The notes under the pieces are model-generated. The model was not told the origin of the DNA, searched no databases, and saw only the letters and a list, made by a program, of their open reading frames with translations. DNA of 64,000 nt from Deltaproteobacteria bacterium (lineage in GTDB: Bacteria > Desulfobacterota > JBBIRW01), in the NCBI GenBank assembly GCA_037441565.1, contig JBBIRW010000003.1, forward strand, positions 12,953-76,952, read 5' to 3'. Positions 4,220-50,685 of the stretch are shown here, piece by piece. How positions within the stretch are numbered: the stretch's first letter is position 1; each line of letters opens with the position of its first letter. Position numbers and translations under genes: made by a program.

Positions 4220-4810
4220 ATGGATCAAGAGGCAATTGAGCGAAGGATTTTGGAAAGTTTCTATGAGGGTGCAGAGCTGAAGAAGAGATTTGTGGATAGT
4301 AATGCATCCCTTATATTTGAGATATCTTCACTCATTGCAAATGCGATAAAAAATGGGAAAAAGATTATGCTTTTTGGTAATGGAGGAAGTGCCTCTGATG
4401 CCCAGCATATAGCCTCGGAATTTGTTAACCGATTCCTTATTGACAGACCACCGCTTCCTGCCATGGCCCTCACAACCGATACATCCATTCTGACAAGTAT
4501 TGGCAATGACTACAGATTTGAAGAGATCTTCTCCCGCCAGATCCGCGCGGTTGGGAAGGAAGGGGATGTTGCTATTGCCATATCAACAAGTGGTAATTCG
4601 AAGAATGTTATTGAGGCAGTGAAGATGGCAAAGTCAATGAAAATAAAAACTGTTGCGCTCACAGGAAAGGATGGTGGTCTTCTGGCAAAAATTGCGGACT
4701 ACTGCCTTCTTGTGGACTCATTTGAAACCCCGAGAATTCAAGAAATACATATCACTATTGGACATGTAATCTGCGATATAGTTGAAAGCATCCTCTTTAC
4801 AAATTTATGA
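4220..4810 (+). CDS. gmhA: D-sedoheptulose-7-phosphate isomerase (SIS domain, GmhA/DiaA family)
   Basis: SIS-domain protein of 196 aa carrying the GmhA-like motifs ...MLFGNGGSASDAQHIASEF... and ...AISTSGNS.... Confidence 0.85.
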   Translation: MDQEAIERRILESFYEGAELKKRFVDSNASLIFEISSLIANAIKNGKKIMLFGNGGSASDAQHIASEFVNRFLIDRPPLPAMALTTDTSILTSIGNDYRFEEIFSRQIRAVGKEGDVAIAISTSGNSKNVIEAVKMAKSMKIKTVALTGKDGGLLAKIADYCLLVDSFETPRIQEIHITIGHVICDIVESILFTNL

Positions 4811-5475
4811 AAAAGGGTAAGGAAAAAAAGATTATTTCAATATACGAGGGAATGCTGCATCATTTCGGACCCCGGGGATGGTGGCCTGCAGAAACGTCTT
4901 TTGAGGTAATAATAGGTGCGATTCTGACACAGAATACCAGCTGGTCAAATGTGGAGAAAGCAATCAAGAACATGAAAGAAAACAACTGCCTTGATCCGCA
5001 TGCACTCTTAATGATGGATGAGCGATTGCTTTCCCAAATCATAAAACCATCCGGTTTTTATAAGATCAAGGCCTCAAGGATAAAGGAGTTCATCAATTAT
5101 CTCTTCAAAAGACATAATGGTGATATAAGCCGTATGTTTACAATGGATCCAGATTCTTTAAGAAAGGAGCTCCTCTCAATAAGGGGGATAGGTCCTGAAA
5201 CAGCAGATAGTATACTTCTCTATGCAGGAGGCATGCCCTTCTTTGTTGTAGATTCATATACAAAAAGAATACTATCAAGGCATGGCGCCGTGGAAATGAA
5301 TGCTTCATATGACAGGATACAGTCATTTTTCCATAAAAATCTGCCTCGTGACTCCAGACTTTTTAATGAATTTCATGCACTCTTTGTTGCCACAGGAAAG
5401 TATTACTGCAGGAAGAATCCCAGCTGTGATCCGTGCCCTCTTAATAAAAGGGCGCTTTGGGGATGGAGGATATGA
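4807..5475 (+). CDS. HhH-GPD superfamily DNA glycosylase (endonuclease III-related, non-FeS-cluster type)
   Basis: Helix-hairpin-helix GPD motif (LLSIRGIGPETADSILLYAGGMPFFVVDSY) and an endonuclease III-like fold. The start overlaps the gmhA stop (ATGA). Confidence 0.75.
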   Translation: MKKGKEKKIISIYEGMLHHFGPRGWWPAETSFEVIIGAILTQNTSWSNVEKAIKNMKENNCLDPHALLMMDERLLSQIIKPSGFYKIKASRIKEFINYLFKRHNGDISRMFTMDPDSLRKELLSIRGIGPETADSILLYAGGMPFFVVDSYTKRILSRHGAVEMNASYDRIQSFFHKNLPRDSRLFNEFHALFVATGKYYCRKNPSCDPCPLNKRALWGWRI

Positions 5476-5516
5476 TCTTCAAAAAGTATAATTGAAGGAA
5501 GAGGGAGGTAACATAT

Positions 5517-6326
5517 ATGTTGATGAAGGAAAGGTTTATAACACTTCTTACAGATTTTGGAACAAAGGATCCATATACTGCATCACTCAAGGGTGCAATC
5601 CTTACAATCAATCCAAAAGTGGATATAATCGATATAACCCATGACATCCCTCCTCAGGACATCTTTGAGGCAGCATTCATACTTAAATGCACATATAAAT
5701 TCTTTCCAAGGGATACAATACACATTGCAGTTGTTGATCCCGGAGTTGGTGGAAGCAGAAAACCTATCCTTGTTAAAACAAGGGATTATATGTTTGTTGG
5801 CCCGGACAACGGCATCTTCAGTTTTATACTTGAGGAAGAAGAGGAGAAATATATATATCATCTGAATAACAAAAAATATCATCTCCCCGTGATAAGTGAC
5901 ACATTTCACGGAAGAGATATTTTCGCACCTGTTGCAGCCCATCTTTCACTTGGAGTTAATCCAGAAAAGGTTGGTGAGCTTATAGAAACAGCCTTCATTC
6001 TTGATATACCAAAACCTGAGATTAAAAAAGGGAAAATATGTGGAACGATCATACATGTTGACCGTTTCGGAAATCTCATAACAAACATTTCGGCGCATCT
6101 ATTCAGTAATTTTGTTGGAAATAATCCATTTGAAATAGAACTTGCACAAAGAACTATAAAGAAGGTAAACCGGGCTTATTCGGAATCCAATCCTGGTGAA
6201 CTGCTTGCAATATTTGGAAGTGCAGGTTTCCTTGAGATATCCATAAATCTCGGAAACTGCTCCAGGGAGCTTTCACTCGGCAAAGGTGATAAAATATCAG
6301 TAAGGGTCCACAGACTCGTTGGTTGA
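5517..6326 (+). CDS. S-adenosyl-L-methionine hydroxide adenosyltransferase (DUF62; SalL/FlA-like chlorinase/fluorinase fold)
   Basis: DUF62 signature N-terminus (ITLLTDFGTKDPYTASLKGAIL...IIDITHDIPPQDI...VVDPGVGG) and a protein of about 270 aa. Confidence 0.8.
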   Translation: MLMKERFITLLTDFGTKDPYTASLKGAILTINPKVDIIDITHDIPPQDIFEAAFILKCTYKFFPRDTIHIAVVDPGVGGSRKPILVKTRDYMFVGPDNGIFSFILEEEEEKYIYHLNNKKYHLPVISDTFHGRDIFAPVAAHLSLGVNPEKVGELIETAFILDIPKPEIKKGKICGTIIHVDRFGNLITNISAHLFSNFVGNNPFEIELAQRTIKKVNRAYSESNPGELLAIFGSAGFLEISINLGNCSRELSLGKGDKISVRVHRLVG

Positions 6327-6328
6327 TC

Positions 6329-8314
6329 ATGAAAAGATATACCATAAAGCCCGCTATTGAGAAAAAACCCTTCAGAATAGATTACGAAAAGGAGCTAAAC
6401 CCTCAACAGCTTGAAGTAGTAATGGCGCCATCCGGTCCTATTCTCGTAATAGCGGGGGCAGGAAGTGGAAAGACAAGGGTTGTCACCTTCAGGGTTGCGA
6501 GGTTAATTGAATCAGGTGTTGACCCTTCAAGAATACTCCTCCTCACATTTACAAACAAGGCTGCAAAAGAAATGCTTCACCGTGTTGAACATCTCCTCAG
6601 TATAGACACGAGGAGCATATGGGGAGGAACTTTTCATCACACAGGAAATTTAATATTACGAAGGCATTCAGAAATTCTTGGGTTCAAATCAAACTTCACA
6701 ATACTGGACTCAGAAGATTCAAAGGAATTACTTGAAACATGTATAGCGGAACTTGGCATTGAGACAAAGAAGAAGAGATTTCCAAAAGGTGAAGTCCTCA
6801 GGGACATTTCGGGATTAAGCATAAACAGGGAAAAGAGCATTGAGGAGATATTTGATGAGAGATACCCTTATTTCCTTGACCTCCATGAAGAGATACAGAG
6901 TGTGCTTACATTTTACAAAAAGAAAAAATTTCAGATGAATGCCATGGATTTTGATGACCTTTTGCTTTACTGGAGACATTTGCTTGAAAATCACCCAGAT
7001 ATACTTAATTATTATGCAAACAGATTCCTTCATATCCTTGTTGATGAGTATCAGGATACAAACAAATTGCAAGCAGATATTGTTGATCTTCTCGCTTCCA
7101 CCCATAGGAATCTAATGGTTGTTGGAGATGATTCCCAGTCTATTTATTCATTCAGGGGCGCACATTTTTCAAATATAATTGATTTCCCTTCAAGATACCC
7201 TGACTGCAAGATTTTCAAACTTGAAATAAATTACAGGAGCACACCCCAGATACTCTCCCTTGCAAACTCATCCATCTCAAACAACAAAAGGCAGTTTAAG
7301 AAGAGGCTCGTTTCGGTCAGGAAAGACGGACCCCTTCCTGCCATAGTTTCCCTGAGGGATCCATCACTTCAAGCAGAGTTCGTTGCCCAGAGAATACTTG
7401 AATTGAGAGAAAATGGTATACCATTCAATGAGATCGCTGTCCTTTACAGGGCACATTACCAATCTATGGAATTGCAAATGGAGCTTACCAGGAGGGGTAT
7501 TCCATATGAGGTGAGATCAGGAATCAGGTTTTTTGAACAGGCACACATCAAGGACATAGTATCCTTCCTGCGCTTCATTCTCAACCCCCATGATGAACTC
7601 TCTTTTAAAAGGATCCTGAAGATCTATCCTGGTTTAGGTCCTTCAACTGCGGAGAGGCTCTGGAATCTCTGTGTCTCTTCCAACAATCCTATTGAGGCGC
7701 TGAAAAGTAATGATTCAAAAAAAATAATTCCAAAAATGGGGATCGATGGATACAGGGATTTTCTTGAAACGATCGATAAATTAACAAAATGTGATATAAA
7801 TTCTGAGCCTTCCCCTCTGATAGAGATCATACTCGAAGGTGGATACATTGATTACCTGATCAGCCGTTATCCAAATGCAGAGTCCCGCCTCGAGGATATC
7901 GAGCAGCTTTCACTTTTTGCAAAGAAATTCAAAAATCTTGAATCTCTCCTTAGCGAGCTTTCACTGATGAGTGCTGTTGCTGCTGAGGATATAGCAGAAT
8001 CTGAGGCAGAGGATGAAAGGGTAGTGCTCAGCTCCATCCATCAGGCAAAAGGGCTGGAATGGGGAGTCGTATTTATCATATATCTTGCTGAGGGCAGGAT
8101 GCCATCTGCAAAAGGACTTCGTGATCCCGAGGGTGAAGAGGAAGAGAGAAGACTCTTCTATGTTGGAACAACAAGGGCAAAGGATGAGCTTTATCTCTGT
8201 TATCCACTGATGGGAAATAGCTGGGAAAGAGGTGGCCTCCTTCTGAAGCCATCGAGATTTATCCAGGAGCTCCCTGAGAACGTTTACGAGGAGTGGATTG
8301 TGGAGGAAAAATGA
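6329..8314 (+). CDS. UvrD/PcrA/Rep-family ATP-dependent DNA helicase
   Basis: Walker A (AGAGSGKTRVVTFRV) and SF1 helicase motifs (LVDEYQDTN, VGDDSQSIYSFRGA, and Q/R motifs in the 2A domain), 662 aa. The ATG at 6329 is preferred over the TTG at 6323 reported by the track. Confidence 0.88.
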   Translation: MKRYTIKPAIEKKPFRIDYEKELNPQQLEVVMAPSGPILVIAGAGSGKTRVVTFRVARLIESGVDPSRILLLTFTNKAAKEMLHRVEHLLSIDTRSIWGGTFHHTGNLILRRHSEILGFKSNFTILDSEDSKELLETCIAELGIETKKKRFPKGEVLRDISGLSINREKSIEEIFDERYPYFLDLHEEIQSVLTFYKKKKFQMNAMDFDDLLLYWRHLLENHPDILNYYANRFLHILVDEYQDTNKLQADIVDLLASTHRNLMVVGDDSQSIYSFRGAHFSNIIDFPSRYPDCKIFKLEINYRSTPQILSLANSSISNNKRQFKKRLVSVRKDGPLPAIVSLRDPSLQAEFVAQRILELRENGIPFNEIAVLYRAHYQSMELQMELTRRGIPYEVRSGIRFFEQAHIKDIVSFLRFILNPHDELSFKRILKIYPGLGPSTAERLWNLCVSSNNPIEALKSNDSKKIIPKMGIDGYRDFLETIDKLTKCDINSEPSPLIEIILEGGYIDYLISRYPNAESRLEDIEQLSLFAKKFKNLESLLSELSLMSAVAAEDIAESEAEDERVVLSSIHQAKGLEWGVVFIIYLAEGRMPSAKGLRDPEGEEEERRLFYVGTTRAKDELYLCYPLMGNSWERGGLLLKPSRFIQELPENVYEEWIVEEK

Positions 8315-39574: not shown

Positions 39575-40720
39575 TTAAACCTTAAATCTGAGAAGGGCAC
39601 CTATTTGAATGGGTTTATCGTTGTAATAGAAATCATAGTGGATCTCTTTTAGTTCACTCCCTGTGCTTATAGAGAGATTTACTGCATCATCAACAATATT
39701 TTCCCTCTCCTCCATCTCCTTTCTGCAGTAGGGGCATGCCTCCTGCCTCCACCAGATATAACCGCACTCCCTGCATATGGCACCCTTTTCCCTGTAGCCT
39801 TCACGCACGATGAGCAAGCGAACAGCCCCCTTCTGTATTGCGAAGAGCGTATTATCAAGTCCAAAACAACCAGGTCCCTTTGAGGAAACCTCTTTAAAAA
39901 TCTCATCCATAAGCCTTTTCTCTTCCGCCTTTCTTATCTCCTCCTCCACCGATCTCATGACCTCCTGCACCTGGGATACAGGTGCATTGATAGCCATATC
40001 CAGCCTTGCTGCAATCCGGCTTTTCAGGTTATTTGGAAGATGAAGCTCAAATTTGCTGATGAGTTTCTGATTCCCTCCAATGATCATATATTCAATATCC
40101 CGAATTTTGAAGAATTCAGAGACTGCATCACCAACCCTTTTAAGGTATCTCTGCAGGTGATCCTCTATGTGTCTCTCAATTCGTCTTTCCGCAAGTCCAT
40201 ACCATCCCGCCATCTTTACCTTTGATGGAACATCACTTAGCATGTGTGACTCTTCACTTATAATACCCATGTAGTAGTGGAATATACGGGATGCATCCCT
40301 GTCAAGGATTACCATCCCGAATCTATGATACCCATCCATCAGAAACATAAGCGGTTTAATAAAAGGCCTGCTATCAACAATCATCATATTTCTTACAGGT
40401 ACTGGAAGGCAAATTAATTCCCAGAGTCCAGCATTGCGAGATGAGAAAAGAACGAGACCTTTTGTTCCTTTTCTCTCAAATTTCCGTGTTACAAAATTAA
40501 GGGTATCCTGAAGCTCTTTTTCAATAATTAATCTCTTTTCCCTTTCAACCTCGAGTCTTTCCATCTCTTCCTTTTTCTCCTTTATCAATCCTTTGAGCAC
40601 GATTTCATACTCCTTTTTTGGATACAATTTCCCATCGACATTGAGATAAAGACTCACCACAGGGAAGCCTTTTGTATCCATTGAGATGATCTCTTTTACT
40701 TTCTGCAAAACATTAATCAT
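39575..40720 (-). CDS. bacterial eRF1/Pelota-like (baeRF-type) protein with C-terminal zinc ribbon; GGQ motif absent
   Basis: Central domain (HRFGMVILDRDASRIFHYYMG) and C-terminal domain (GPGCFGLDNTLFAIQKGAVRLLIV) follow the eRF1/Dom34 domain 2-3 pattern. A CRECGY...CPYC insert forms a Zn ribbon. The GGQ-loop position reads MAGWYG, so peptidyl-tRNA hydrolysis is not expected. Confidence 0.6.
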   Translation of the reverse strand: MINVLQKVKEIISMDTKGFPVVSLYLNVDGKLYPKKEYEIVLKGLIKEKKEEMERLEVEREKRLIIEKELQDTLNFVTRKFERKGTKGLVLFSSRNAGLWELICLPVPVRNMMIVDSRPFIKPLMFLMDGYHRFGMVILDRDASRIFHYYMGIISEESHMLSDVPSKVKMAGWYGLAERRIERHIEDHLQRYLKRVGDAVSEFFKIRDIEYMIIGGNQKLISKFELHLPNNLKSRIAARLDMAINAPVSQVQEVMRSVEEEIRKAEEKRLMDEIFKEVSSKGPGCFGLDNTLFAIQKGAVRLLIVREGYREKGAICRECGYIWWRQEACPYCRKEMEERENIVDDAVNLSISTGSELKEIHYDFYYNDKPIQIGALLRFKV

Positions 40721-40730
40721 AAAAAACCCC

Positions 40731-41459
40731 CTATTTAGCTCTGCCGTGATATATTGAAAACATCTCTTTCATGCGGATGGCATCTTCAAACATCGAGATA
40801 TTATTAAACATGAAATATCCTTCCTTAAAATCCTCTGTCATCTCAATGAGCTTCTTCAGATCACTATAAGTGTATTTATATCTGTACCCATCCCTTCCAT
40901 GCAATCGTAGATAGAATATTGAGAAGCCTGGAGGTATTGTTCTGAAAGGGTCCAGGCATGGGACTAAATCAAGTTCCCTGCATATATGGAAGATCTGCTC
41001 ATTTTCCCAGTATCCCCTTGGTTCCCAAACACATATTATCCCCTTCCTTTCGATCTTTCTGAAAAATCCTTTTAAATTTCTTATGCTCTCATCTGATGGA
41101 ATGAATGATGAAGAGGTCTGAAAAACAACAATCCGTGATGAAAGGACTTCAGCAATTTTTCTTACAACCTCCCACGCTTCAAAAACCTCGTCAGTATTCT
41201 GAAAATTTCCATATCTCCCCTTCTTACCCTCATCAATCCTTCTCTTTAATCTCCTGTATGTTGGGCTTGTGGGAGAATGGGTAATGAGCTGCCAGGCCTT
41301 TACAGTAAATTCAAAACCCTCAGGAACATCCTTTCTCCATTTCTCAATAGTTGAAAGACAAGGTGGATCATAGAAGATCTGCTGAACCTCAACAACATCA
41401 AGATACCTCACATACTTTTCCCTTGATACGGAAAAGCCACAACATCCAACCCTTATCAT
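40731..41459 (-). CDS. DUF72 (YecE/UPF0759) family protein
   Basis: TIM-barrel-like DUF72 pattern: N-terminal ...IRVGCCGFS..., ...FEFTVKAWQ..., ...YLRLHGR.... Confidence 0.75.
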   Translation of the reverse strand: MIRVGCCGFSVSREKYVRYLDVVEVQQIFYDPPCLSTIEKWRKDVPEGFEFTVKAWQLITHSPTSPTYRRLKRRIDEGKKGRYGNFQNTDEVFEAWEVVRKIAEVLSSRIVVFQTSSSFIPSDESIRNLKGFFRKIERKGIICVWEPRGYWENEQIFHICRELDLVPCLDPFRTIPPGFSIFYLRLHGRDGYRYKYTYSDLKKLIEMTEDFKEGYFMFNNISMFEDAIRMKEMFSIYHGRAK

Positions 41460-41905
41460 AAATCTTTATTCCTGGAAATGTCCTTTATAATTACAGATGC
41501 CTTAAGAATGATATCCCTTTCACTATCATAGTTCATAATCTTCACAGCCTCCTCAATTGGAAACCACCTTACCTCCTCAACCTCAAAGTCGTGATCCTCA
41601 ACACTTCCAGATAGATATTCAAGGAGATAGAAATGAACAGTTTTATTGATCTTGCTTTCGCTCTCCCTATCATAAAACCAGTAGTTTATCTCGCCTATCT
41701 TATCCACAATCCTTCCATCAAGTCCTGTTTCCTCTTTTACCTCCCTTGCGGCTGTCTTTTCAAGATCCTCTGATTCCTCAACGATCCCCTTTGGTAAGCA
41801 CCAGATCCTGCCACCTCCTCTGCGTATAAGGGCAATAAATACCCTCTCTCCTTCACTCCTGTATATGACACCTCCGGATGAGACTTGCTTTATAATTCTC
41901 CCCAT
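41456..41905 (-). CDS. NUDIX hydrolase
   Basis: Nudix box GIVEESEDLEKTAAREVKEETGL (Gx5Ex7REUxEExGU), 149 aa. Confidence 0.88.
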   Translation of the reverse strand: MGRIIKQVSSGGVIYRSEGERVFIALIRRGGGRIWCLPKGIVEESEDLEKTAAREVKEETGLDGRIVDKIGEINYWFYDRESESKINKTVHFYLLEYLSGSVEDHDFEVEEVRWFPIEEAVKIMNYDSERDIILKASVIIKDISRNKDL

Positions 41906-42975
41906 AGCGAACTCCTGCCAAGCTCTCTTCCAGAGCTACATATCTTTAATGAGCCCAGCTGAAGAAATCTTACCCTTGCTGGAATCTTCAGTGGTGTAAG
42001 TATATGAAATACACATCTTCTTATATCAAATTTTATCAATATTCCAAGGGCAATTGTATTTAAATGCCTGTCACTCAGACCAACAAGGAGATTTTCGAAA
42101 TCCTCTATTTCGTAAATCTCTAATTCATTAACAGAAAAGACATCCTTTATTCTGAAAAGATTTTCCCTGCTATAACCTCCCCTCGTGATTATGGTCATCC
42201 TGTTTGTCTTTCTTTCCGCATAGAGCACAGATGTTTCGAGTTCCCTCGATAGGAAGGAAAGGTCACTACTTGTAACCCTCTTCCCAATCCCAATTGTTGC
42301 ACCTATTATGGATATATCCTCGATGGGAAACTCCAGTTCTGATGCCATGGAAAAATATTCTCCAAACATCTTCTCCCTGTATGCCTTTCTTGCCTCCCTT
42401 TCCCTCTGTTTCACTGCCCCAACCGGTTTTAACTCATAGATCCTTAAATCCTCCATCTTCCTGAAAGGGTTCAAGATAGGCTCAAGCTCTCCATCATCAA
42501 TCACAACTATGTTTTCCGGTTTAATTACATCTATTTTGTACAGTTTAAGCGTCCTTGCTGCCCTTCCATGGATAAGACCTGATGTGTCAACAATAGTGTA
42601 TTCACAGCCAAGATAAGCTGACCTCTCCATAAGTGCCTTTACACCAGCAATGATAGGAACAAAGAATCCAACAGGTGAGGTGGAACCTATGAATCTGGTT
42701 CCCACACATCTGATTTCATATCTACCTTCCTGCTTCTTTCTTGCAAGTCCTAATGCTATTGTTGTGGGAAGACCGATTGACTGTTGACCGACATCTGTAT
42801 CGAGCAAACTTACACGCTCGCCTCGCATTGTAAGTTCATCAACGATAAACCTTGAGAGTGTGCTCTTTCCTGAATCGGTTTTTCCGAGAATTACAGTTGG
42901 ACCCCTTCTCTTTCTTATTTCAGAAACAAGATCGACCCATTCGGGCGGGATCAGAATTTTATCTCTCCTTTCCAT
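41890..42975 (-). CDS. Clp1/Grc3-family P-loop polynucleotide 5'-hydroxyl kinase-like protein
   Basis: Walker A GKTDSGKSTL followed by the Clp1-diagnostic LDxDxGQ motif (LLDTDVGQQSIGLP) and a Walker B-like IVDTSG. Overall Clp1 N-/central-/C-domain proportions at about 360 aa. Confidence 0.65.
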   Translation of the reverse strand: MERRDKILIPPEWVDLVSEIRKRRGPTVILGKTDSGKSTLSRFIVDELTMRGERVSLLDTDVGQQSIGLPTTIALGLARKKQEGRYEIRCVGTRFIGSTSPVGFFVPIIAGVKALMERSAYLGCEYTIVDTSGLIHGRAARTLKLYKIDVIKPENIVVIDDGELEPILNPFRKMEDLRIYELKPVGAVKQREREARKAYREKMFGEYFSMASELEFPIEDISIIGATIGIGKRVTSSDLSFLSRELETSVLYAERKTNRMTIITRGGYSRENLFRIKDVFSVNELEIYEIEDFENLLVGLSDRHLNTIALGILIKFDIRRCVFHILTPLKIPARVRFLQLGSLKICSSGRELGRSSLWGEL

Positions 42976-42993
42976 TTTAACTCACCTGAAATC

Positions 42994-44091
42994 TCAATAG
43001 GCATCGGAAAGCAGGTGAACATTTCCGATTCTAACCCTTCTTAATCCCTCTTCGTGGGCAACCTCCATGCATCTCTCCGCATGTGATCTTGATGTCCTCG
43101 GAAGATCTGTAAGATAAAACTGAGGATAGAATCCAAGAAGGGAATAAGGGATCTCAGGGTCAATAGAAGAGATAAAGCGTGCTATGGATCTTACCTCTTT
43201 TTCATCCACATATCCCGGAACAAGTAGTGTGCTTGCAATAAGCAAAGGAGGTTCCCTTCTCTTTTTAACAAATGATGCTGCAAAACGAAAATTCTCCAGG
43301 GTCTGATCATTATATGTATTGCACAGTGCCATATGGAGATTCTTATCCCATGCCTTTAAATCAAACTTCACACAACCTCCGCTATTAAGTGCAATATTCA
43401 TGATCTCTTCGAGAAAATCCTCCTTCATGGAACCATTCGTCTCCCAGCAGATCCTCAATATCCTCTCCCTCTTTCTCTTCAATGCAATCCTTGATGCTTT
43501 TATAGAATGGATGATCTGGGATGAAGGATCCCCACCAAAATAGCACACGCAGCTCGTTCTCTCATCGATAGCATCAACCAGCTCCTCTGCAGATATACCC
43601 TTTCCCTTTATGTCCATCCTTCTGAAATGCCAGTTCTGACAGAAAAGGCAGTTGAATGTGCATGCGTGATAGAAAACAGCAAGATTTTTATAACCTATTT
43701 CGGGTCCTTTTTTATAACAGAACTCGGGATAACCCGAGCCAGTCCCTCCTGGACATACCCAGTCAGCAACACAGTTTGTTGGGAGCGGATCATGATAGTA
43801 GCTAAGATAGCCTTCTCCTCCTCCCCTGAGATAACCATCTTCAAACCTCCTTATGCCGCAAAAACCCCTTTCACCTTCCGGGATGATACATCTGTTGCCA
43901 CAAAAATCACATTCCTTACCGCCAACCTTTGGGATCTCCTCTCTTAACCCAAATCTCCTTCTGCTTTCTCTATGCAGTTCGAAAATATCTTCTCTAATAT
44001 CGAAAGAACCTCCCCTTATACAATCCGCACAATATCCAAGAATAGATGAAATGGTCAATGAACGATTTTTACAACTTTTACATCTGCCCAC
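42994..44091 (-). CDS. radical SAM enzyme, pyruvate-formate-lyase-activase-like (AmmeMemoRadiSam/PflX-type) with N-terminal CxxC-CxxC zinc ribbon
   Basis: Radical SAM cluster motif CTFNCLFCQNW (Cx3Cx2C), a preceding C..C...G..G.CG.R element as in the PFL-AE-like subgroup, and an N-terminal CKSC...CADC. Confidence 0.75.
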   Translation of the reverse strand: MGRCKSCKNRSLTISSILGYCADCIRGGSFDIREDIFELHRESRRRFGLREEIPKVGGKECDFCGNRCIIPEGERGFCGIRRFEDGYLRGGGEGYLSYYHDPLPTNCVADWVCPGGTGSGYPEFCYKKGPEIGYKNLAVFYHACTFNCLFCQNWHFRRMDIKGKGISAEELVDAIDERTSCVCYFGGDPSSQIIHSIKASRIALKRKRERILRICWETNGSMKEDFLEEIMNIALNSGGCVKFDLKAWDKNLHMALCNTYNDQTLENFRFAASFVKKRREPPLLIASTLLVPGYVDEKEVRSIARFISSIDPEIPYSLLGFYPQFYLTDLPRTSRSHAERCMEVAHEEGLRRVRIGNVHLLSDAY

Positions 44092-44099
44092 TTATTTCC

Positions 44100-45368
44100 C
44101 TAAAAAAGCTTCATCTGTCTGTCATCACTTATCGGGACATCCTTTCCATGCTCACCTTCGTCATCCCATGCAATGGAAACCTTACCGTAAATACCATCAT
44201 AACCAGGGATTACTTTTACACAACCCTCCCTTACCTTTATAACGCCGGAATATATTTTTTGTGGAAGAAGCTTTGAAAGTTCTTCAGGGGTAAGGTTCAG
44301 AAGTATATTAAATTCCGATCCACATTGGGAGACTATTTTTCTATATTCCTTCTCAACCCTTTCTGTTCCCACACCAACCCCTAATGCATCTGCAATGATT
44401 TCCTCAAGCGGAATCAGATGCTTCGCAGGAATCGCGCCTTCTGGAGTATAGCCCTCGGGTCTGTCAGCAAGCTCCTCGACCCTGTGCATAACACCTATGG
44501 TTAATGGAGAATTACATACTGGACACCTGTTATTATACTTTCTACTCTCAGCAGGAGAAAGGGAAACCCCACAATTCCTGTGACCATCGAAATGGTATTT
44601 ACCTTCCTGGGGAAAGAACTCAATTGTAAAACGAAACTTATCCCTGGATTTCGTCTTTAAGGACTCCACAATATCCCTGTATGTAAGGGGGCAATTGAAA
44701 ACATTTGCCTCCCTTCCAATTCTCGATGGTGAATGGGCATCTGAATTAGAGATCAGGGTAATATTATCAAGTGCTGACAGACGCCAGTTCATCTGTGGAT
44801 CTGAGGAAAGACCTGTCTCAATGACCCTTATCAGATCTGCCTGATCCTCAAATGCCTCCTCAATGGAATCAAAACCGGAGAATGAACCGAAGAGGGAAAA
44901 CCAGGGTGTCCATACATGTGCAGGGATGATCATTGCATCAGGAGAGATATCGTAAACCATCTTTACCAGATCCTTTACAGGAAATCCGAACACCGGTCTT
45001 CCATCTGATCCGATCTTACCCATTCGTGAAAGCAATGAATTAAGTTTTTCAGCAGCTTCAAAGGATGGAAGGAAGATGATGCAGTGAACTTTTCTGAGCC
45101 TTCCACCACTTGAAAAGATGTTGCTAACCTCTCCTGTGAGCATGAATTTTACCGATGGATCACCCTTCTTTAATGAGAATAGCCCATTTCCCTCAGGTTT
45201 GAGCTTTCCCATCAATTCTGCAAAGTATGTTGGATGGGTAAAATCACCTGTTCCAAGAAGGTTTATCCCCTTCAGCTTTGCCCATTTCGCCATATTCTCC
45301 ACATCCATATCCCTGCTCGTTGCCCTGCTATACTTCGAATGGACATGAAAATCCGCAATAATCCTCAT
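44100..45368 (-). CDS. endonuclease Q-like PHP-domain nuclease (TIGR00375-type) with C4 zinc finger
   Basis: PHP motifs (DFHVHSKYS; GTGD; PAHVWTPW; SNSDAHSP), a CPVC...C zinc finger and C-terminal VIPGYDGIYGKV. Length 422 aa fits EndoQ. Confidence 0.7.
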   Translation of the reverse strand: MRIIADFHVHSKYSRATSRDMDVENMAKWAKLKGINLLGTGDFTHPTYFAELMGKLKPEGNGLFSLKKGDPSVKFMLTGEVSNIFSSGGRLRKVHCIIFLPSFEAAEKLNSLLSRMGKIGSDGRPVFGFPVKDLVKMVYDISPDAMIIPAHVWTPWFSLFGSFSGFDSIEEAFEDQADLIRVIETGLSSDPQMNWRLSALDNITLISNSDAHSPSRIGREANVFNCPLTYRDIVESLKTKSRDKFRFTIEFFPQEGKYHFDGHRNCGVSLSPAESRKYNNRCPVCNSPLTIGVMHRVEELADRPEGYTPEGAIPAKHLIPLEEIIADALGVGVGTERVEKEYRKIVSQCGSEFNILLNLTPEELSKLLPQKIYSGVIKVREGCVKVIPGYDGIYGKVSIAWDDEGEHGKDVPISDDRQMKLF

Positions 45369-45407: not shown

Positions 45408-45662
45408 CTATTCAATAACCCTGTAGACAAGATCAGAAGGTCTTACCCTCTCACTGACCTTTATCCCCACGAGATCCCCCTCTGATGCTGTTTCTACATT
45501 CTGGTGTTCAATCTGCATGGACTCAACCCTCTGCACAAAGTCAGTGGTGTTTCCCTGAAAATGGAGGGAGTCCCCTAACCTTATAGAACCCTTTGTAATC
45601 TTTACTGCTGCAACCCCTATCTTTGCAAAATATTTAACAACCTCTCCAACCTTTTCTTCCAT
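45408..45662 (-). CDS. small EF-Tu-domain-II-like beta-barrel protein (hypothetical)
   Basis: 84 aa with the G.V..G.I..GD.L......V.S.......V..A..GD.VGI pattern typical of translation-GTPase domain 2 barrels. Lies between the EndoQ and PolX genes. Confidence 0.4.
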   Translation of the reverse strand: MEEKVGEVVKYFAKIGVAAVKITKGSIRLGDSLHFQGNTTDFVQRVESMQIEHQNVETASEGDLVGIKVSERVRPSDLVYRVIE

Positions 45663-45683: not shown

Positions 45684-47402
45684 TTATCTCCCTCTCGAGG
45701 TCCTCTTAATAAGTTCATTAAGAGGGAGGGTATTCAATACATCATCCTTTGTCAGCCAGCCTCTCCTCGCTACAGCTATACCAAATTCCATCAGTTCAAG
45801 ATGATTTATAATATGTGCATCCGTATTTATACAAAGCTTTACCCCTAACTCTTTTGCCCTCCTTGAGAGGATATCATTTAAATCCATCCTCTGAGGGTAA
45901 GCATTTACCTCAAGCGAAATATCTCTCCTCTTTGCCTCTTTCATAATAAGGTCGAAGTCCAGCTCATAAGCCTCCCTTTCTCCAATAAGCCTTCCAGTGG
46001 GATGGGCTATGATATTTACATAGGGGTTAGACATGGCATTCAGGATCCTTTTTGTAAGAATCTCTTTTCCTGCCTTGAACCCATAATGGATCGATGCAAT
46101 AACTATATCAAGCTTCTTTAGAACCTCATCAGGTAGATCAAGTGATCCATCTCCGAGGATGTCAACCTCAATCCCTTTAAGTATCTTTATCTTTGATTTC
46201 TTATTGAGCCTTTCAATCTCCTCTATCTGGTCCATAACTTCCTCTGGTCCCATCCCCCTTGCAATCCCAAGGGATTTTGTGTGATCTGCTATCGCTATAT
46301 ACTCGTAACCCTTTTTTTCTGCATATCTGGCAATCTCCTCTATATCATGAGCACCATCACTCCATTTAGAGTGTATGTGGAGATCTCCTCTTATATCAGA
46401 TAGTTCAATAAGCTGAGGAAGTCTTCCTTCGGCTGCTGCCTCAATCTCCCCCTGGTCCTCCCTTAATTCCGGTGAAATCCATTTGAGTCCGAGCGCACTG
46501 TAAACCTCATCCTCCTCCTTTCCCGCGATCTTTTTCCCTGTTTTTTCATCAAAAACGCCATATTCACTTATTTTCAGGCCCAGCCTATCTGCTATCTGTC
46601 TTAGGTGTATATTATGATTCTTTGATCCTGTGAAATACTGAAGCGCTGCACCGAAACTTTCAGGTTCAACGACCCTCAGATCAACCTGAAGCCCATCATG
46701 GGTAAGCACGCTGGACTTTGTTGAACCCTTGGCAAGCACATCAGCGACATAGGGAAGAGAAACGAAATGATCCATAATCTTTTTTGGATCATGGGAAATT
46801 ATGAGTATATCCACATCCTTTATGGTTTCTTTCATCCTCCTTAAACTCCCCGCTATATTTAATCTCTTTACCTCTTTGAGCGAAAGTAGTGCCTTTTCAA
46901 ACTCCCTGGCAATGGGAAGAACCCTTCCAAGGGGCATCCTCTCCCTCCCCTTTTTATAAAGCTCTATACCCTTTCTGATATTCTCCTCGGTTTTTTCCCT
47001 TATCCCTGGAAGTTTACACAGCTTGTGACTTTTTGCAGCCTCCTCCAGTTCTTCTATAGTTTTTATCCCAAGGGATTCATATATAAGCTTTGCAGTCTTT
47101 GGTCCAAGACTGGGTATGGAGAGCATCTGCACAAGTCCTCTGGGTATCTCCTTTTTCAGCTTCTCATAATCCTCAAATGTCCCTCTTTCTATGATCTCAA
47201 CGATCTTCTGTGCGAGGTCTTTGCCTATACCCGGAATCTTTGTAAGCTCGCCCCTTTTGGAAATATCCTCTATATTCTCCGTAAGATTTTCTATATTCTG
47301 GGCTGCCTTCCGGTAGGCTCTGATTCTGAAAGGGTTTTCATCTTTGATTTCGAGGAGATCAGCAACATCGTTGAATATCCTTGCAATTTCCATGTTTCTC
47401 AT
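45684..47402 (-). CDS. DNA polymerase X (Pol-beta-like polymerase + C-terminal PHP 3'-5' exonuclease/AP endonuclease domain)
   Basis: N-terminal 8-kDa/HhH domain (IARIFNDVADLLEIKDENPFRIRAYRKAA), Pol-beta palm (GS.RR..E...D.DIL) and C-terminal PHP motifs (DLHIHSKWSDG, ADH). Confidence 0.92.
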   Translation of the reverse strand: MRNMEIARIFNDVADLLEIKDENPFRIRAYRKAAQNIENLTENIEDISKRGELTKIPGIGKDLAQKIVEIIERGTFEDYEKLKKEIPRGLVQMLSIPSLGPKTAKLIYESLGIKTIEELEEAAKSHKLCKLPGIREKTEENIRKGIELYKKGRERMPLGRVLPIAREFEKALLSLKEVKRLNIAGSLRRMKETIKDVDILIISHDPKKIMDHFVSLPYVADVLAKGSTKSSVLTHDGLQVDLRVVEPESFGAALQYFTGSKNHNIHLRQIADRLGLKISEYGVFDEKTGKKIAGKEEDEVYSALGLKWISPELREDQGEIEAAAEGRLPQLIELSDIRGDLHIHSKWSDGAHDIEEIARYAEKKGYEYIAIADHTKSLGIARGMGPEEVMDQIEEIERLNKKSKIKILKGIEVDILGDGSLDLPDEVLKKLDIVIASIHYGFKAGKEILTKRILNAMSNPYVNIIAHPTGRLIGEREAYELDFDLIMKEAKRRDISLEVNAYPQRMDLNDILSRRAKELGVKLCINTDAHIINHLELMEFGIAVARRGWLTKDDVLNTLPLNELIKRTSRGR

Positions 47403-47455: not shown

Positions 47456-48676
47456 CTAACAAACAGGAAATCTCCCATCTAAAAGCATCTCGCAGAATGA
47501 CCCTATACGGGAAAGTTCTTCATCGATTATATGCTCACAGCTTCTCGATATCTTTTTAAAACTCACCCGATCCTTCTTCAATATCTGTGCCGATGCGATC
47601 TTCGGCCGATCAATGGGAGAGCCGATCTGACTGCATAACCACACATATACCTCCCTTATTCCATCCACCTCCTTATATATCCTGTTTGCAATCTGGTGGG
47701 CAAGGATATTGTATATCTTTCCCACATGACTTACAGGATTTTTCCCAGCAGCTGCCTCTGCGCCCGTAGGCCTGTTCAGGGCAATTATCCCGTTTACCCT
47801 GTTCCCCCTCCCAACCTGACCTGAATCTGCATCCTCAGCTGAGGTCCCAAGGACGCTCAAATATACCCCTTCAACCCCCCTCCCTTTCCTGTCAAGGGTA
47901 TTGAAGTACAGGTTGGTATTTCTGAAGTAGCCTTTATTTGAAAGGGTAAAGTTTTTTATTTCCCTCATTACAACCCTCTTTCTCTCGAAATAATATGCCT
48001 CATTCTCGATAAATCTATCTATGAAAGGCATGGCAATGGTAAGGTGGATATCCCTCCCCTCCCTGAACCCCATAACTTTTACATCTTCACCCGTTTCAGG
48101 AAACTTGTTTTTGAACTCTGAAGAATTAAGGAATCTCTCGATCTCCAGAACAAGCTTTTCCGTTGGTGTAAGTGGCGCATAACCAATAGCAGCTGATGTA
48201 TCATTTGATCCATACAATCCCTTCCTGTCCTTTTTGAATATAGATGTAAGTTCCGATGATCCCGGCTTCAACTCAACTTGGTAACGGACATGCTCTTCAG
48301 GATCAACAAACCTCAAATTCTTTCTTATCCAGTCCTTTGCAGTTTCAACTGCAATCTCCTCCACTGCTATCACTTTTCCATCCACCCTGACCGTTGCCCT
48401 ATCACCTATGATAATCTTCATAGGCTCTATAACCCTTCCACCACCAAATCTTCTCTCCACACCACCTGCAACAAGAAGCCCCTTGTCTATGTTAAAATGG
48501 CATATACTCCCTGTGATCCGTAAATACTCGCGCGAAAGTGCCCTTGAGACCTCCTCCATTATGGAATCACATATGAAATCAGGATGACCAAGACCCTTGC
48601 GCTCAACTATCTCAACCTTCTGTTCTTCGATCGGGATTGACTTCAGCTCTTCCACAATTATCTTCCTTATACTCAT
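47456..48676 (-). CDS. archaeal-type S-adenosylmethionine synthetase (methionine adenosyltransferase, PF01941 class)
   Basis: ERKGLGHPDFICDSI, GYAPLTPTEKLVLEIERFLNS and GTSAEDADSGQVGRGNRVNGII...GKNPVSHVGKIYN are near-identical to archaeal MAT signatures. The start is trimmed to ATG 48676 (MSIRKIIVEE), which has a GGAGAGGGG RBS. Confidence 0.9.
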   Translation of the reverse strand: MSIRKIIVEELKSIPIEEQKVEIVERKGLGHPDFICDSIMEEVSRALSREYLRITGSICHFNIDKGLLVAGGVERRFGGGRVIEPMKIIIGDRATVRVDGKVIAVEEIAVETAKDWIRKNLRFVDPEEHVRYQVELKPGSSELTSIFKKDRKGLYGSNDTSAAIGYAPLTPTEKLVLEIERFLNSSEFKNKFPETGEDVKVMGFREGRDIHLTIAMPFIDRFIENEAYYFERKRVVMREIKNFTLSNKGYFRNTNLYFNTLDRKGRGVEGVYLSVLGTSAEDADSGQVGRGNRVNGIIALNRPTGAEAAAGKNPVSHVGKIYNILAHQIANRIYKEVDGIREVYVWLCSQIGSPIDRPKIASAQILKKDRVSFKKISRSCEHIIDEELSRIGSFCEMLLDGRFPVC

Positions 48677-48833
48677 CCTTCCCCTCTCCATTTTCCTTTT
48701 TTCTCTTCTGGATTGCCTGCTGGGCAATACACTCCCCATCCGTTGGATCACAACCCTTCTCTCTCAATTCACACCATCCATCCATGCTGTACTTGCAATA
48801 CATCTATTCCTTTTTACCACAAAAAGGGCTCGA

Positions 48834-50204
48834 CTATAAACCCCTTATTTTCTTTTTCAAGTCCCTCAGCAGGTCAATATCCCACCCTGACTTTCTACAG
48901 CATAGTATGGAATTGTTATGAAAGAGGGGCTCCTCCTCAATGGGAAATGGTGATGCAGCAACAGCCTCTTTCCACATCTCTGTTCCAGGAATGGGTGAGT
49001 ATTCAACAAGTATCGGTTTTGCACCGCAGGTATGAACGAATATGGCCGTATCGAGAACCTCATGGGAGCGCTGTCCTGGAAGACCGCACATTATATAAAC
49101 CCCTATATCATCCCTCCTGTATCCAGCTTTTCTAAGGGATTTTACACAATCAATGAATTCACTCTCCGTTACCTTCGCTCCTTCTCTTTCATGCCACTCA
49201 TCATCCTTTACCTCAAATCCAAGTCTTATGGTTTTGAATCCTGAAAGATAAAGTAACCGAGCAACCTCCTCATCTATAAACCTTATATGAAGCCCGTTGG
49301 GACAGTGAAACCTGAGTTGAAGATTCTTCTTGATTATCTCTTTGAGTAATGGGACAAAATATTCATATGCATTAACAAGGAGCGCATCGTCGTAGAACAC
49401 AAAATCAAGGCAGCCAAATCTGTTATGCCAGTAAAGGACCTCCTTTAAAACATTCTCAGGTGTTCTTCTTTTAAATGAAGGAAAGAGCATATTGGAGGCA
49501 CAGTAAGAACATTGGAATGGGCAGCCTCTCGAGGTCAGGATAGTAACATAATCGATCCTTTTCAAAAGATCAAAGGCGGGGTATGGAAGGGTTTCCGGTG
49601 AAAGCGCATCGGGAACAAAATCGGGTTCGAACTTGAATAACCCCTTAATTACTTGCAAAATTTCATTTTCACCATAGCCCTTAATAACATAATCAGCCCC
49701 GGAATATTTGAGTGCATGCTCATGGCAGAGTGTCGCATATATTCCACCCAGTACCACAGGTATCCCTGGAAAGTTCCTCTTAAGGATTGATATAGCTTCA
49801 AAAACACCCTGATACCAGTATGTCATCCCTGATGTGACAAGGATGAGATCAGGTGGAGGGGAGATACTTAACTCCCTGAGAAACAGGTCCTCCGGATAAC
49901 CAAACCTCTTGTACCTCCTTGGTATCGATGAAAGCTTTTCGGGCTTCTTCGCTTCAGTCCAGAAGAACTCTCCTCTGCCGTCAAACCTTCTCTTAATCGG
50001 TTTTCTCCTATAAAGCCCCAAGCAGGGATGGTGTACATCCAGTGCATCTATAAGGGTGATTGCAAAGCCATTCTCTCTTAAAATGGATGCAATATAAAGA
50101 AGGCCAAGGGGTTTTGCCCAGAGATCAAAGTAAGAAAAATCGTAAACCCATGGATTGATCAGAAGGACATGCCTTTTGCCTTCCATCCCTATAAATGTTA
50201 TCAT
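48834..50204 (-). CDS. B12-binding-domain radical SAM enzyme (class B)
   Basis: N-terminal cobalamin-binding Rossmann domain (VLLINPW...LGLLYIASILRENG) and a radical SAM core (TSRGCPFQCSYCAS). The start is trimmed to ATG 50204 (MITFIG) or 50186 (MEGKRH); the longer track ORF would overlap dtd. Confidence 0.82.
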   Translation of the reverse strand: MITFIGMEGKRHVLLINPWVYDFSYFDLWAKPLGLLYIASILRENGFAITLIDALDVHHPCLGLYRRKPIKRRFDGRGEFFWTEAKKPEKLSSIPRRYKRFGYPEDLFLRELSISPPPDLILVTSGMTYWYQGVFEAISILKRNFPGIPVVLGGIYATLCHEHALKYSGADYVIKGYGENEILQVIKGLFKFEPDFVPDALSPETLPYPAFDLLKRIDYVTILTSRGCPFQCSYCASNMLFPSFKRRTPENVLKEVLYWHNRFGCLDFVFYDDALLVNAYEYFVPLLKEIIKKNLQLRFHCPNGLHIRFIDEEVARLLYLSGFKTIRLGFEVKDDEWHEREGAKVTESEFIDCVKSLRKAGYRRDDIGVYIMCGLPGQRSHEVLDTAIFVHTCGAKPILVEYSPIPGTEMWKEAVAASPFPIEEEPLFHNNSILCCRKSGWDIDLLRDLKKKIRGL

Positions 50205-50235
50205 TCCATAAATATAATATAAACGGGTTGCAGAA

Positions 50236-50685
50236 TTGAGGGCAGTTGTCCAGAGGGTGAAAAGGGCTGAAGTGAGGGTTAATGGAGTCATTTGTGGTTC
50301 CATAGGGAAGGGGCTTGTTGTTCTTATTGCAATCGGAAGGGAAGATGGGGATGAAGATATAAGCTATATGGTTTCAAAAATATTGAATCTGAGAATCTTT
50401 GAGGATGAACAGGGGAAGATGAATCTCTCACTCAAAGATATCTCAGGGGAACTCCTCATTGTCTCCCAATTCACACTATATGGCGATTGTAGAAAGGGAA
50501 GAAGACCCAATTTCCTTGAAGCTGCACCGCCAGAGCAAGCACTACTTCTTTACAGCAGATTTATAGATGAAATAAGAAAAGAGGGATTCGACCCAAAACA
50601 GGGTGAATTCCAGAAGATGATGGAGCTTGAGCTTGTAAATGATGGTCCTGTTACCATCCTTCTTGACAGCAAAAGGATATTCTAA
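50236..50685 (+). CDS. dtd: D-aminoacyl-tRNA deacylase
   Basis: SQFTLY motif and Gly-cisPro-like region of Dtd, 149 aa. The initiation codon at 50236 is TTG. Confidence 0.88.

Follow-up and report, generated by a model that had tools for sequence, protein, structure and literature searches.

A Clp1-family kinase gene and its neighbours

We analysed a 64,000-nucleotide stretch of DNA from a Deltaproteobacteria bacterium (contig JBBIRW010000003.1, positions 12,953 to 76,952; hereafter, the window), which carries a gene for a bacterial homologue of the polynucleotide kinase Clp1, overlapped by a Nudix hydrolase gene and preceded by a gene for a radical S-adenosylmethionine (SAM) enzyme (hereafter, rSAM). 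Listing the open reading frames (ORFs) and reading their junctions confirmed the layout that a first-pass annotation of this DNA had given, with all three genes on the minus strand: the end of the Clp1 gene shares 16 nt (41890-41905) with the beginning of the Nudix gene, and 18 nt separate the rSAM stop from the Clp1 ATG, with a Shine-Dalgarno-like AGGTGAG string inside this gap. The three genes belong to a run that reads, in one direction and with tight or overlapping junctions, PolX, EF-Tu-D2-like, EndoQ, rSAM, Clp1, Nudix and DUF72, the last two genes overlapping by 4 nt (ATGA):

40731-41459, minus strand: DUF72 protein (Pfam DUF72, 102.5 bits)
41456-41905, minus strand: Nudix hydrolase, 149 amino acids (Pfam NUDIX, 83.1 bits; Nudix box intact)
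41890-42975, minus strand: Clp1-family P-loop polynucleotide 5'-kinase homologue, 361 amino acids (Pfam CLP1_P, motifs and fold)
42994-44091, minus strand: rSAM enzyme, 365 amino acids, GTG start (Radical_SAM, 51.5 bits; PflA-like core)
44100-45368, minus strand: endonuclease Q (EndoQ) homologue, 422 amino acids, PHP nuclease with Zn finger (match to PfuEndoQ)
45408-45662, minus strand: small EF-Tu-domain-2-like (EF-Tu-D2-like) beta-barrel protein, 84 amino acids (GTP_EFTU_D2, 33.2 bits)
45684-47402, minus strand: PolX DNA polymerase with C-terminal PHP domain, 572 amino acids (NCBIfam PolX equivalog)

From a methionine adenosyltransferase (MAT) gene farther upstream down to the DUF72 gene, successive genes are separated by 8-53 nt or overlap. 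Terminator-like sites were no more numerous here than in shuffled sequence, and the promoter and terminator scan as a whole did no better than on shuffled sequence, so that it does not define the limits of an operon. The Nudix, Clp1 and rSAM proteins were found again, identical or 75-94% identical, in other assemblies that keep the gene order, which shows that the three ORFs are real genes rather than chance reading frames; the closest named genome is an uncultured Thermodesulfobacteriota metagenome-assembled genome (MAG; locus L011). The remaining window is ordinary chromosome, with mreD/mrdA/rodA, eno, the his operon, prfA, rho and thyX, and an origin of the gene run in a mobile element or a defence island was rejected because of these surroundings.

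The ORF at 41890-42975 encodes a genuine Clp1/Grc3/Nol9-family P-loop kinase, as judged by its Pfam score, conserved motifs and predicted fold. Residues 31-209 cover positions 1-187 of the 188 in the CLP1_P profile at 120.7 bits (gathering cut-off 26.6; E 8.5e-35), and the protein carries both a Walker A motif (GKTDSGKST) and the LDTDVGQ signature. Among 30-33 homologues, G31, G36, K37 and T39 of Walker A, D61, G63 and Q64 of the DxDxGQ motif and the lid arginines R196 and R200 are invariant; in the Walker B region (VDTxG), D130 and T131 are at least 90% conserved and G133 is invariant. In human and C. elegans Clp1, the corresponding motifs align with these segments. The protein consists of a kinase domain (about residues 30-210) and a beta-rich C-terminal domain (about 212-355), with no eukaryote-type N-terminal domain. 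When its AlphaFold2 model (pLDDT 92, pTM 0.89) was compared with the PDB using Foldseek, ranks 1 to 22 were all Clp1, Grc3 or Nol9 structures (E 4e-18 to 5e-9), and other P-loop families (SRP54/FtsY) appeared from E 3e-5 on. ParA/MinD, APS kinase and SRP GTPase were rejected as identities since their Pfam matches were marginal and their fold E-values about 13 orders weaker. Thus, the Clp1/Grc3/Nol9 identity that had first been proposed from the motifs holds, and the protein does not group with ABC-type or other P-loop NTPases, the outcome that would have spoken against it, because Pfam, motifs and fold all give the same family. Its product is a predicted ATP-dependent polynucleotide 5'-hydroxyl kinase. 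In long members of the family (408-612 amino acids), a search for fused extra domains found only CLP1_P.

The fold of human CLP1 (8hmy_E) matches that of the window protein with E 4e-18 and TMq 0.64 over 361 aligned columns, and phmmer aligned the human and C. elegans sequences with E 4e-9 and 4e-7, respectively. Eukaryotic Clp1, Grc3 and Nol9, which act in tRNA splicing, mRNA 3' end formation and pre-rRNA ITS2 processing, thus have the same fold and catalytic motifs as the window Clp1, but they are only 11-17% identical to it and possess an N-terminal domain that it lacks. The tryptophan of the eukaryotic 'TCGW' motif, which reportedly stacks on an RNA base in C. elegans Clp1 structures, is replaced by leucine in the window protein ('TSGLI') and is L, F, M or Y among bacterial homologues. 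The gene context differs as well: the window Clp1 lacks a partner such as TSEN, Pcf11 or Las1, and its neighbours are bacterial genes of DNA-repair type.

Clp1-family proteins were catalogued in all three domains of life by Saito et al. in 2019, who found them in 0.9% of complete bacterial genomes (PMC6777427). In that study, the Clp1 of Thermus scotoductus (Ts-Clp1) was a polynucleotide kinase that prefers single-stranded RNA (ssRNA) to single-stranded DNA (ssDNA), which it phosphorylates at higher enzyme concentration, and the archaeal enzyme of Pyrococcus horikoshii (Ph-Clp1) had the same preference, while yeast Clp1 was without kinase activity (PMC6777427). The gene context of the bacterial proteins was not analysed there, and no cellular role was proposed (PMC6777427). 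Bacterial Clp1 homologues are therefore rare, as the first-pass annotation stated, but not wholly uncharacterised, as it also stated, since the Thermus enzyme was assayed (PMC6777427). Set beside Ts-Clp1 and Ph-Clp1 by their published descriptions rather than by direct sequence comparison, the window Clp1 shares with them CLP1_P, the Walker A, DxDxGQ, Walker B and lid motifs and the missing eukaryote-type N-terminal domain; it differs from Ts-Clp1, described as having neither N- nor C-terminal domain (PMC6777427), by a C-terminal domain that aligns with that of eukaryotic Clp1.

Genes recurring around bacterial Clp1

The surroundings of Clp1 genes were collected from one genome per GTDB species (80 loci, flanks of up to 10 kb), collapsed at 60% Clp1 identity into 37 lineages, and neighbours were counted within 6 kb. 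These loci were searched by tblastn with the window proteins, by unbiased ORF clustering and by Pfam scans of the -1/+1 and -2/+2 neighbours. By our own estimate, a single-copy gene in a 3-Mb genome would fall by chance into such an interval of 13 kb in about 0.16 of the 37 lineages. The following genes recurred:

DUF72: 8 loci, 4 lineages, plus locus L171
rSAM orthologue: 8 loci, 4 lineages (54-59% identity outside the window's own lineage)
PolX: 5 loci, 4 lineages (Methylomirabilota, an unclassified MAG, Bacillota and the window lineage)
EndoQ: 7 loci, 2 lineages
EF-Tu-D2-like protein: 6 loci, 2 lineages
Fpg: 4 loci, 2 lineages
RecJ: 2 loci, 1 lineage

All of these share the strand of Clp1 except at one Fpg locus. 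When the proteins encoded at -1 and +1 of 74 Clp1 loci were scanned without preselection, DUF72 came first of all Pfam families, with 7 of the 141 proteins. The genes are arranged in several ways:

Brocadiales (L010, L032): DUF72-Clp1-rSAM-NTPase_1
Anammox-type contig with a hydroxylamine-oxidoreductase-like gene (L171): DUF72-Clp1-NTPase_1-DUF488
Syntrophobacterales (L051, L057, L072, L081): EFTuD2-rSAM-DUF763-EndoQ-DUF72-Clp1-SplB-like rSAM-DUF488
Other Thermodesulfobacteriota (L085, L087): DUF72-Clp1, with divergently transcribed LigA
Brocadia: RecJ-Clp1, with a 1-nt overlap
Methylomirabilota and an unclassified MAG (L013, L017, L018, L020): Fpg-Clp1 and Clp1-PolX

In a neighbour-joining tree, the differing gene orders fall in separate Clp1 clades. 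This bears on an explanation without any functional unit, in which these genes stand together through descent, within a compact region of co-directional genes, Clp1 acts alone on RNA or DNA, and the recurrence reflects the shared ancestry of a few lineages. Such an explanation fits the surroundings of the window Clp1, where at least 14 consecutive minus-strand genes follow one another with short gaps and have unrelated functions, including MAT, an ABC transporter and cytochrome c assembly; it fits as well the roughly three quarters of Clp1 lineages without these partners, the strongest case, in Syntrophobacterales, being a single lineage, and the rSAM-anchored loci described below, which never hold Clp1. 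It accounts less well for the same partners standing in different orders and in separate Clp1 clades, in both Thermodesulfobacteriota and Planctomycetota/Brocadiales, with PolX also in Methylomirabilota and Bacillota, for DUF72, rSAM and PolX each reaching 4 lineages against about 0.16 by chance, and for the nucleic-acid-repair theme that the partners share. On balance, we consider it unlikely.

Other neighbours were seen at small sets of loci, and in some lineages without the above partners a phosphatase gene is all that adjoins Clp1. In four (L019, L022, L041 and L068; Armatimonadota, Bacillota and a 'Thermosaccharophagus' MAG), Clp1 is directly followed at +1 by a gene of the histidine phosphatase superfamily (His_Phos_1, E 4.5e-63), possibly forming a separate kinase/phosphatase end-healing pair; at three other loci the neighbour is a calcineurin-like metallophosphatase. 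At L172 (4883-6843), the RNA 3'-terminal phosphate cyclase gene rtcA, encoding RtcA, lies divergently, 75 bp from a 280-amino-acid Clp1 homologue. Among Asgard archaea (Jordarchaeia and Freyarchaeota; L034, L042, L052, L053), Clp1 has 427-441 amino acids with an N-terminal extension, and it stands between an unannotated 256-amino-acid protein upstream and pyruvate:ferredoxin oxidoreductase subunits downstream, the bacterial repair-type partners being absent.

In the window itself, 10 nt downstream of the DUF72 gene, 39575-40720 encodes a bacterial aeRF1-like (baeRF) protein of family 10, which also matches families of mycobacterial ribosome hibernation factors weakly and contains a CxxC...CxxC insert; this gene stays beside DUF72 only in the window's lineage. 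Family 10 may be an active peptidyl hydrolase (PMC6514570), no GGQ-type motif was seen by eye in the window protein, and the baeRF paper makes no mention of Clp1, Nudix, rSAM or DUF72 (PMC6514570). A second small repair-type group lies far from the run on the plus strand (4807-8314) and consists of an HhH-GPD glycosylase, a SAM hydroxide adenosyltransferase (SAM_HAT) and a UvrD-like helicase.

The Nudix and radical SAM genes

The Nudix protein (PF00293) has an intact Nudix box by strict pattern matching (GX5EX7REUXEEXGU; G-IVEES-E-DLEKTAA-REVKEETGL), and among PDB entries it matches the Ap4A hydrolase 3i7u best (E 3.2e-25). Ap4A-hydrolase-type Nudix enzymes form a branch that includes RppH-like RNA pyrophosphohydrolases. 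None of the NCBIfam equivalogs was reached by the window protein: RppH models gave at most 29.7 bits against cut-offs of 116-259, MutT 33.1 bits (cut-off 148) and MutT1 63.6 bits (cut-off 475). A Nudix-box pattern and tblastn search of 90 loci found this gene adjoining Clp1 only in the window's own lineage (the window, L004 and L011), which is one of the 37 Clp1 lineages. Orthologues with 50-57% identity occur in Nitrospirota, NC10, Bathyarchaeia and others, where they lie in Dxr-RseP-Nudix housekeeping contexts without Clp1. We therefore rejected the Nudix enzyme as a dedicated partner of Clp1. The end-healing or decapping pair of kinase and Nudix suggested in the first-pass annotation is unsupported, given this single lineage, the housekeeping contexts of the orthologues and the RppH and MutT cut-offs; the Nudix gene is a local neighbour, and the three genes are not co-conserved, since they occur together only in those same three places. 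We take the Nudix protein to be a housekeeping Ap4A-hydrolase-like enzyme whose gene was inserted between Clp1 and DUF72 in this lineage.

The RNA framing into which that pair had been put is weak as well. According to it, Clp1 would phosphorylate 5'-OH RNA, the Nudix enzyme would remove 5' pyrophosphates or NpN caps, and rSAM would modify RNA or a protein partner. The ssRNA preference of Ts-Clp1 and Ph-Clp1 (PMC6777427) agrees with this, as do the resemblance of the Nudix protein to Ap4A-hydrolase-type enzymes, the 16-nt overlap, which suggests translational coupling, the RtcA gene divergent from Clp1 at one locus, the His_Phos_1 and metallophosphatase neighbours (four and three loci, respectively) and the baeRF ribosome factor downstream in the window. 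Against it stand the Nudix results, with their single lineage, unrelated housekeeping contexts and RppH scores of at most 30 bits; the recurrent neighbour families of 74 Clp1 loci (top 25 listed), which include no RNA ligase (RtcB, Rnl), Hen1 or Ro; and the recurrent neighbours themselves, which are DNA enzymes (DUF72, EndoQ, PolX, RecJ, Fpg and divergent LigA) set against one RtcA. We regard an RNA end-healing or decapping function of the three genes as improbable.

The rSAM enzyme matches PF04055 (Radical_SAM) above its cut-off of 29.5 bits, and the cysteines of its CxxxCxxC motif (CTFNCLFC; C144, C148 and C151) are invariant. An alignment of 16 orthologues (58-79% identity) has over 100 columns without variation; among these are the N-terminal Cys4 ribbon (C4, C7, C21 and C24), a further CxxCxxxC...C set (C61, C64, C68 and C78) and, within the PTNCVADWVCPGGTG insert, C107 and C113. 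Three or more cysteine sets of this kind would predict auxiliary Fe-S clusters. This alignment favours the 365-amino-acid form that starts at the GTG at 44091. Public gene calls for this rSAM are shorter (P0041, 354 amino acids; P0165, 353 amino acids); since the alignment reaches the C-terminus, what they lack is N-terminal (44059-44091), and they would lose C4 and C7. Relatives at E<=1e-3 numbered 7613 among 8000 scored candidates, and the best 120 of them, from Desulfobacterales, Aminicenantes, Brocadiales and archaea, are 56-62% identical. Thus, the enzyme is a member of a very large, highly conserved, unnamed family.

Its best Foldseek match is PflA (3c8f; E 3.8e-11, TMt 0.73, 243 columns), which, together with the invariant ribbon, bears out the earlier description as a PFL-activase-like enzyme with an N-terminal CxxC-CxxC ribbon. 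The closest NCBIfam model is that of the AmmeMemoRadiSam enzyme (TIGR04337, E 7.5e-22), but at 77.6 bits against a cut-off of 220, and the PflA model (TIGR02493) gave 43.2 bits against 231.75. We found no AMMECR1 or Memo gene in the 10 cluster genes and 10 further ORFs scanned, nor anything similar in the ORF list of the 64-kb window, and no glycyl-radical enzyme in the window or in 80 rSAM-anchored loci, in agreement with what the first-pass annotation had noticed nearby. Since the scores fall below the curated cut-offs and the partner genes are absent, membership in either family was rejected. The AmmeMemoRadiSam enzyme and PflA share with the window protein the CxxxCxxC motif and an upstream CxxCxxxC...GFCG segment, but the latter has in addition the Cys4 ribbon and the PTNCVADWVCPGGTG insert, and its partners (EndoQ, DUF763, DUF72, DUF488, THEP1 and the EF-Tu-D2-like protein) differ from AMMECR1, Memo and glycyl-radical enzymes.

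The 80 rSAM-anchored loci, drawn from metagenomes and representing 39 lineages, held Clp1 in no case (0/80), showing that rSAM does not depend on Clp1. At least one gene of the network was present at 25 of these loci (15 of the 39 lineages):

THEP1/NTPase_1: 9 of 80 loci
DUF488: 7 of 80
EF-Tu-D2-like protein: 6 of 80, in 5 of them immediately upstream of rSAM
DUF72: 4 of 80
EndoQ: 3-4 of 80
DUF763: 3-4 of 80
SplB-like rSAM: 3 of 80

The EF-Tu-D2-like gene stands at -1 to rSAM in L123, L125, L146, L149 and L156, and directly upstream of rSAM in L051, L057, L071, L072 and L081; PDB sequence searches with this protein and with DUF763 gave nothing useful. At some loci, rSAM follows an AmmeMemoRadiSam-like paralogue located just upstream or lies in a FabD-rSAM-NusB-ACP housekeeping context. 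The rSAM protein is therefore an independent, widespread enzyme that shares a neighbourhood network with Clp1 rather than a dedicated Clp1 partner. The two are genuinely linked in a minority of lineages (4 of 37), so that, of the three-gene set singled out in the first-pass annotation, the adjacency of Clp1 and rSAM recurs in distant lineages, while that of Clp1 and Nudix does not go beyond one. Altogether, the first observation is confirmed and its interpretation partly supported. As a guess, rSAM might use radical chemistry to process a nucleic acid or nucleotide that has been damaged, or it might activate a partner protein.

Upstream of PolX, 47456-48751 and 48834-50303 encode an archaeal-type MAT (PF01941, 662 bits) preceded by a B12-binding radical SAM enzyme. 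An archaeal-type MAT thus heads, in a bacterial genome, the same gene run as Clp1, and its position as a SAM-supply gene next to two radical SAM genes may have a meaning or be a coincidence.

The company of rSAM also allows for a Clp1-like protein that is not a kinase of nucleic acids. It could be an NTP-binding accessory of rSAM or DUF72 enzymes, like the inactive, ATP-binding scaffold that is yeast Clp1, or the substrate that it phosphorylates or activates might be something other than a nucleic acid, a task for which the THEP1 NTPase could stand in at other rSAM loci. At many loci, rSAM does have a P-loop protein beside it (about 9 of 80 with THEP1/NTPase_1; L010 and L032 with both Clp1 and NTPase_1), the 'TCGW' tryptophan is leucine in the window Clp1 and unconserved among bacterial homologues, and yeast Clp1 has no kinase activity (PMC6777427). 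However, the catalytic motifs of active Clp1 and Grc3 enzymes are all invariant (the Walker A Lys and Ser/Thr, the Asp and Gln of DxDxGQ and the lid arginines), polynucleotide kinase activity was measured for a bacterial homologue (PMC6777427), and most Clp1 genes occur without rSAM or NTPase_1. Such an accessory role strikes us as very doubtful.

A possible role in DNA 5'-end healing

Since the genes that recur beside Clp1 are DNA-repair genes, they point to DNA rather than RNA as its physiological substrate. The interpretation that we favour, with a probability of about 0.45, is that Clp1 belongs to an island of DNA-repair genes, in which it would heal 5' ends much as the kinase half of PNKP does. 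Mammalian PNKP is a DNA 5'-kinase/3'-phosphatase of single-strand-break and base-excision repair that works with Pol beta. Its kinase, like that of T4 Pnk, is adenylate-kinase-like and not of the Clp1 type. What it has in common with the window Clp1 is thus a proposed role only, likened from gene context alone: the healing of 5'-OH ends beside an X-family polymerase, in our case PolX. PNKP also works with NEIL glycosylases, and glycosylases of the Fpg/Nei family adjoin Clp1 in some lineages, but the kinase families differ and the window protein has no fused phosphatase. In the Pnkp-Hen1 RNA repair system of Clostridium thermocellum, a polynucleotide 5'-kinase likewise shares an operon with end-processing enzymes, and a few Clp1 loci resemble it by adjoining a metallophosphatase or a histidine phosphatase; the window Clp1, however, has no ligase domain and no Hen1 methyltransferase, belongs to another kinase family and has mainly DNA-enzyme neighbours.

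The lineage counts for DUF72, rSAM and PolX speak for a role in DNA repair, as does the ability of prokaryotic Clp1 enzymes to phosphorylate ssDNA (PMC6777427). The neighbours in the window would fit such a role to different degrees. The PolX gene product scored 605 bits against the NCBIfam equivalog cut-off of 426, and 3'-phosphatase activity has been reported for the PHP domain of bacterial PolX (PMC6616362). The EndoQ homologue matches P. furiosus EndoQ (5zb8) over its full length (residues 3-399 against 3-382; E 1.7e-53), but its TIGR00375 score of 194.7 bits lies under the cut-off of 326.6, which places it in a divergent bacterial branch; EndoQ also lies near rSAM in 3-4 further loci of the rSAM-anchored set. 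DUF72 proteins share a structural relationship with UvdE, and their genes are over-represented around polB2 operons of the damage response (PMC11791011). The uncharacterised DUF72, the family found most often right beside bacterial Clp1 genes, is a better candidate than EndoQ for the source of 5'-OH ends.

In the mechanism that we propose, nicks or gaps with a 5'-OH would be produced by radical damage, by cutting at ribonucleotides embedded in the DNA or by a nuclease of the cluster that leaves 5'-OH ends. Clp1 would phosphorylate the 5' end, working like the PNKP kinase half although it belongs to another kinase family, and the PHP domain of PolX would clean the 3' end, a step that the neighbouring His_Phos_1 or metallophosphatase may take over in other lineages. 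Gap filling by PolX and sealing by a ligase would complete the repair.

Several observations weigh against this role. EndoQ leaves a 5'-phosphate, so that its cuts alone do not call for a kinase. The window cluster contains no ligase gene, and a gene for a ribosome-associated factor, baeRF, directly follows DUF72 there. Tight gene spacing is weak evidence in its own right, since the stretch from 35 to 50 kb is a single long co-directional gene run. About 27 of the 37 Clp1 lineages have no repair-type neighbour at all, and Clp1 was absent from every rSAM-anchored locus. RNA is not wholly missing from the picture either, as RtcA in L172 is an RNA-repair-type neighbour, the only one seen, and the characterised prokaryotic Clp1 enzymes favour ssRNA over ssDNA (PMC6777427).

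In the literature searched, no paper describes this gene context of Clp1 or links the trio or the DUF72/DUF488/DUF763/EndoQ network. One member of the bacterial Clp1 family has been assayed, no physiological role has so far been proposed, and the family is generally treated as RNA kinases; its linkage to DUF72, EndoQ, PolX, RecJ and Fpg offers a concrete and testable role, DNA end healing. In a broader and speculative form, which we think rather unlikely to hold as a whole, the Clp1 kinases of anaerobic bacteria would be the missing DNA 5'-OH kinase of an undescribed repair network composed of DUF72, EndoQ, DUF763, DUF488, the SplB-like rSAM, the THEP1 NTPase and PolX/RecJ/Fpg, with the PflA-like rSAM at its centre performing, together with its EF-Tu-D2-like partner, a new radical-based repair or processing reaction on damaged nucleic acid; as a whole, the network would correspond to PNKP-dependent single-strand-break and base-excision repair but be independent of oxygen. 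The linkage also draws attention to large families without an assigned function: the rSAM enzymes, with thousands of members about 55-60% identical across phyla, DUF72, DUF763, DUF488, THEP1 and the 84-amino-acid EF-Tu-D2-like protein. The rSAM neighbourhood network is the most promising lead. Should the link prove functional, a new repair module would be defined, and these families, which co-occur in anaerobes, would gain functions.

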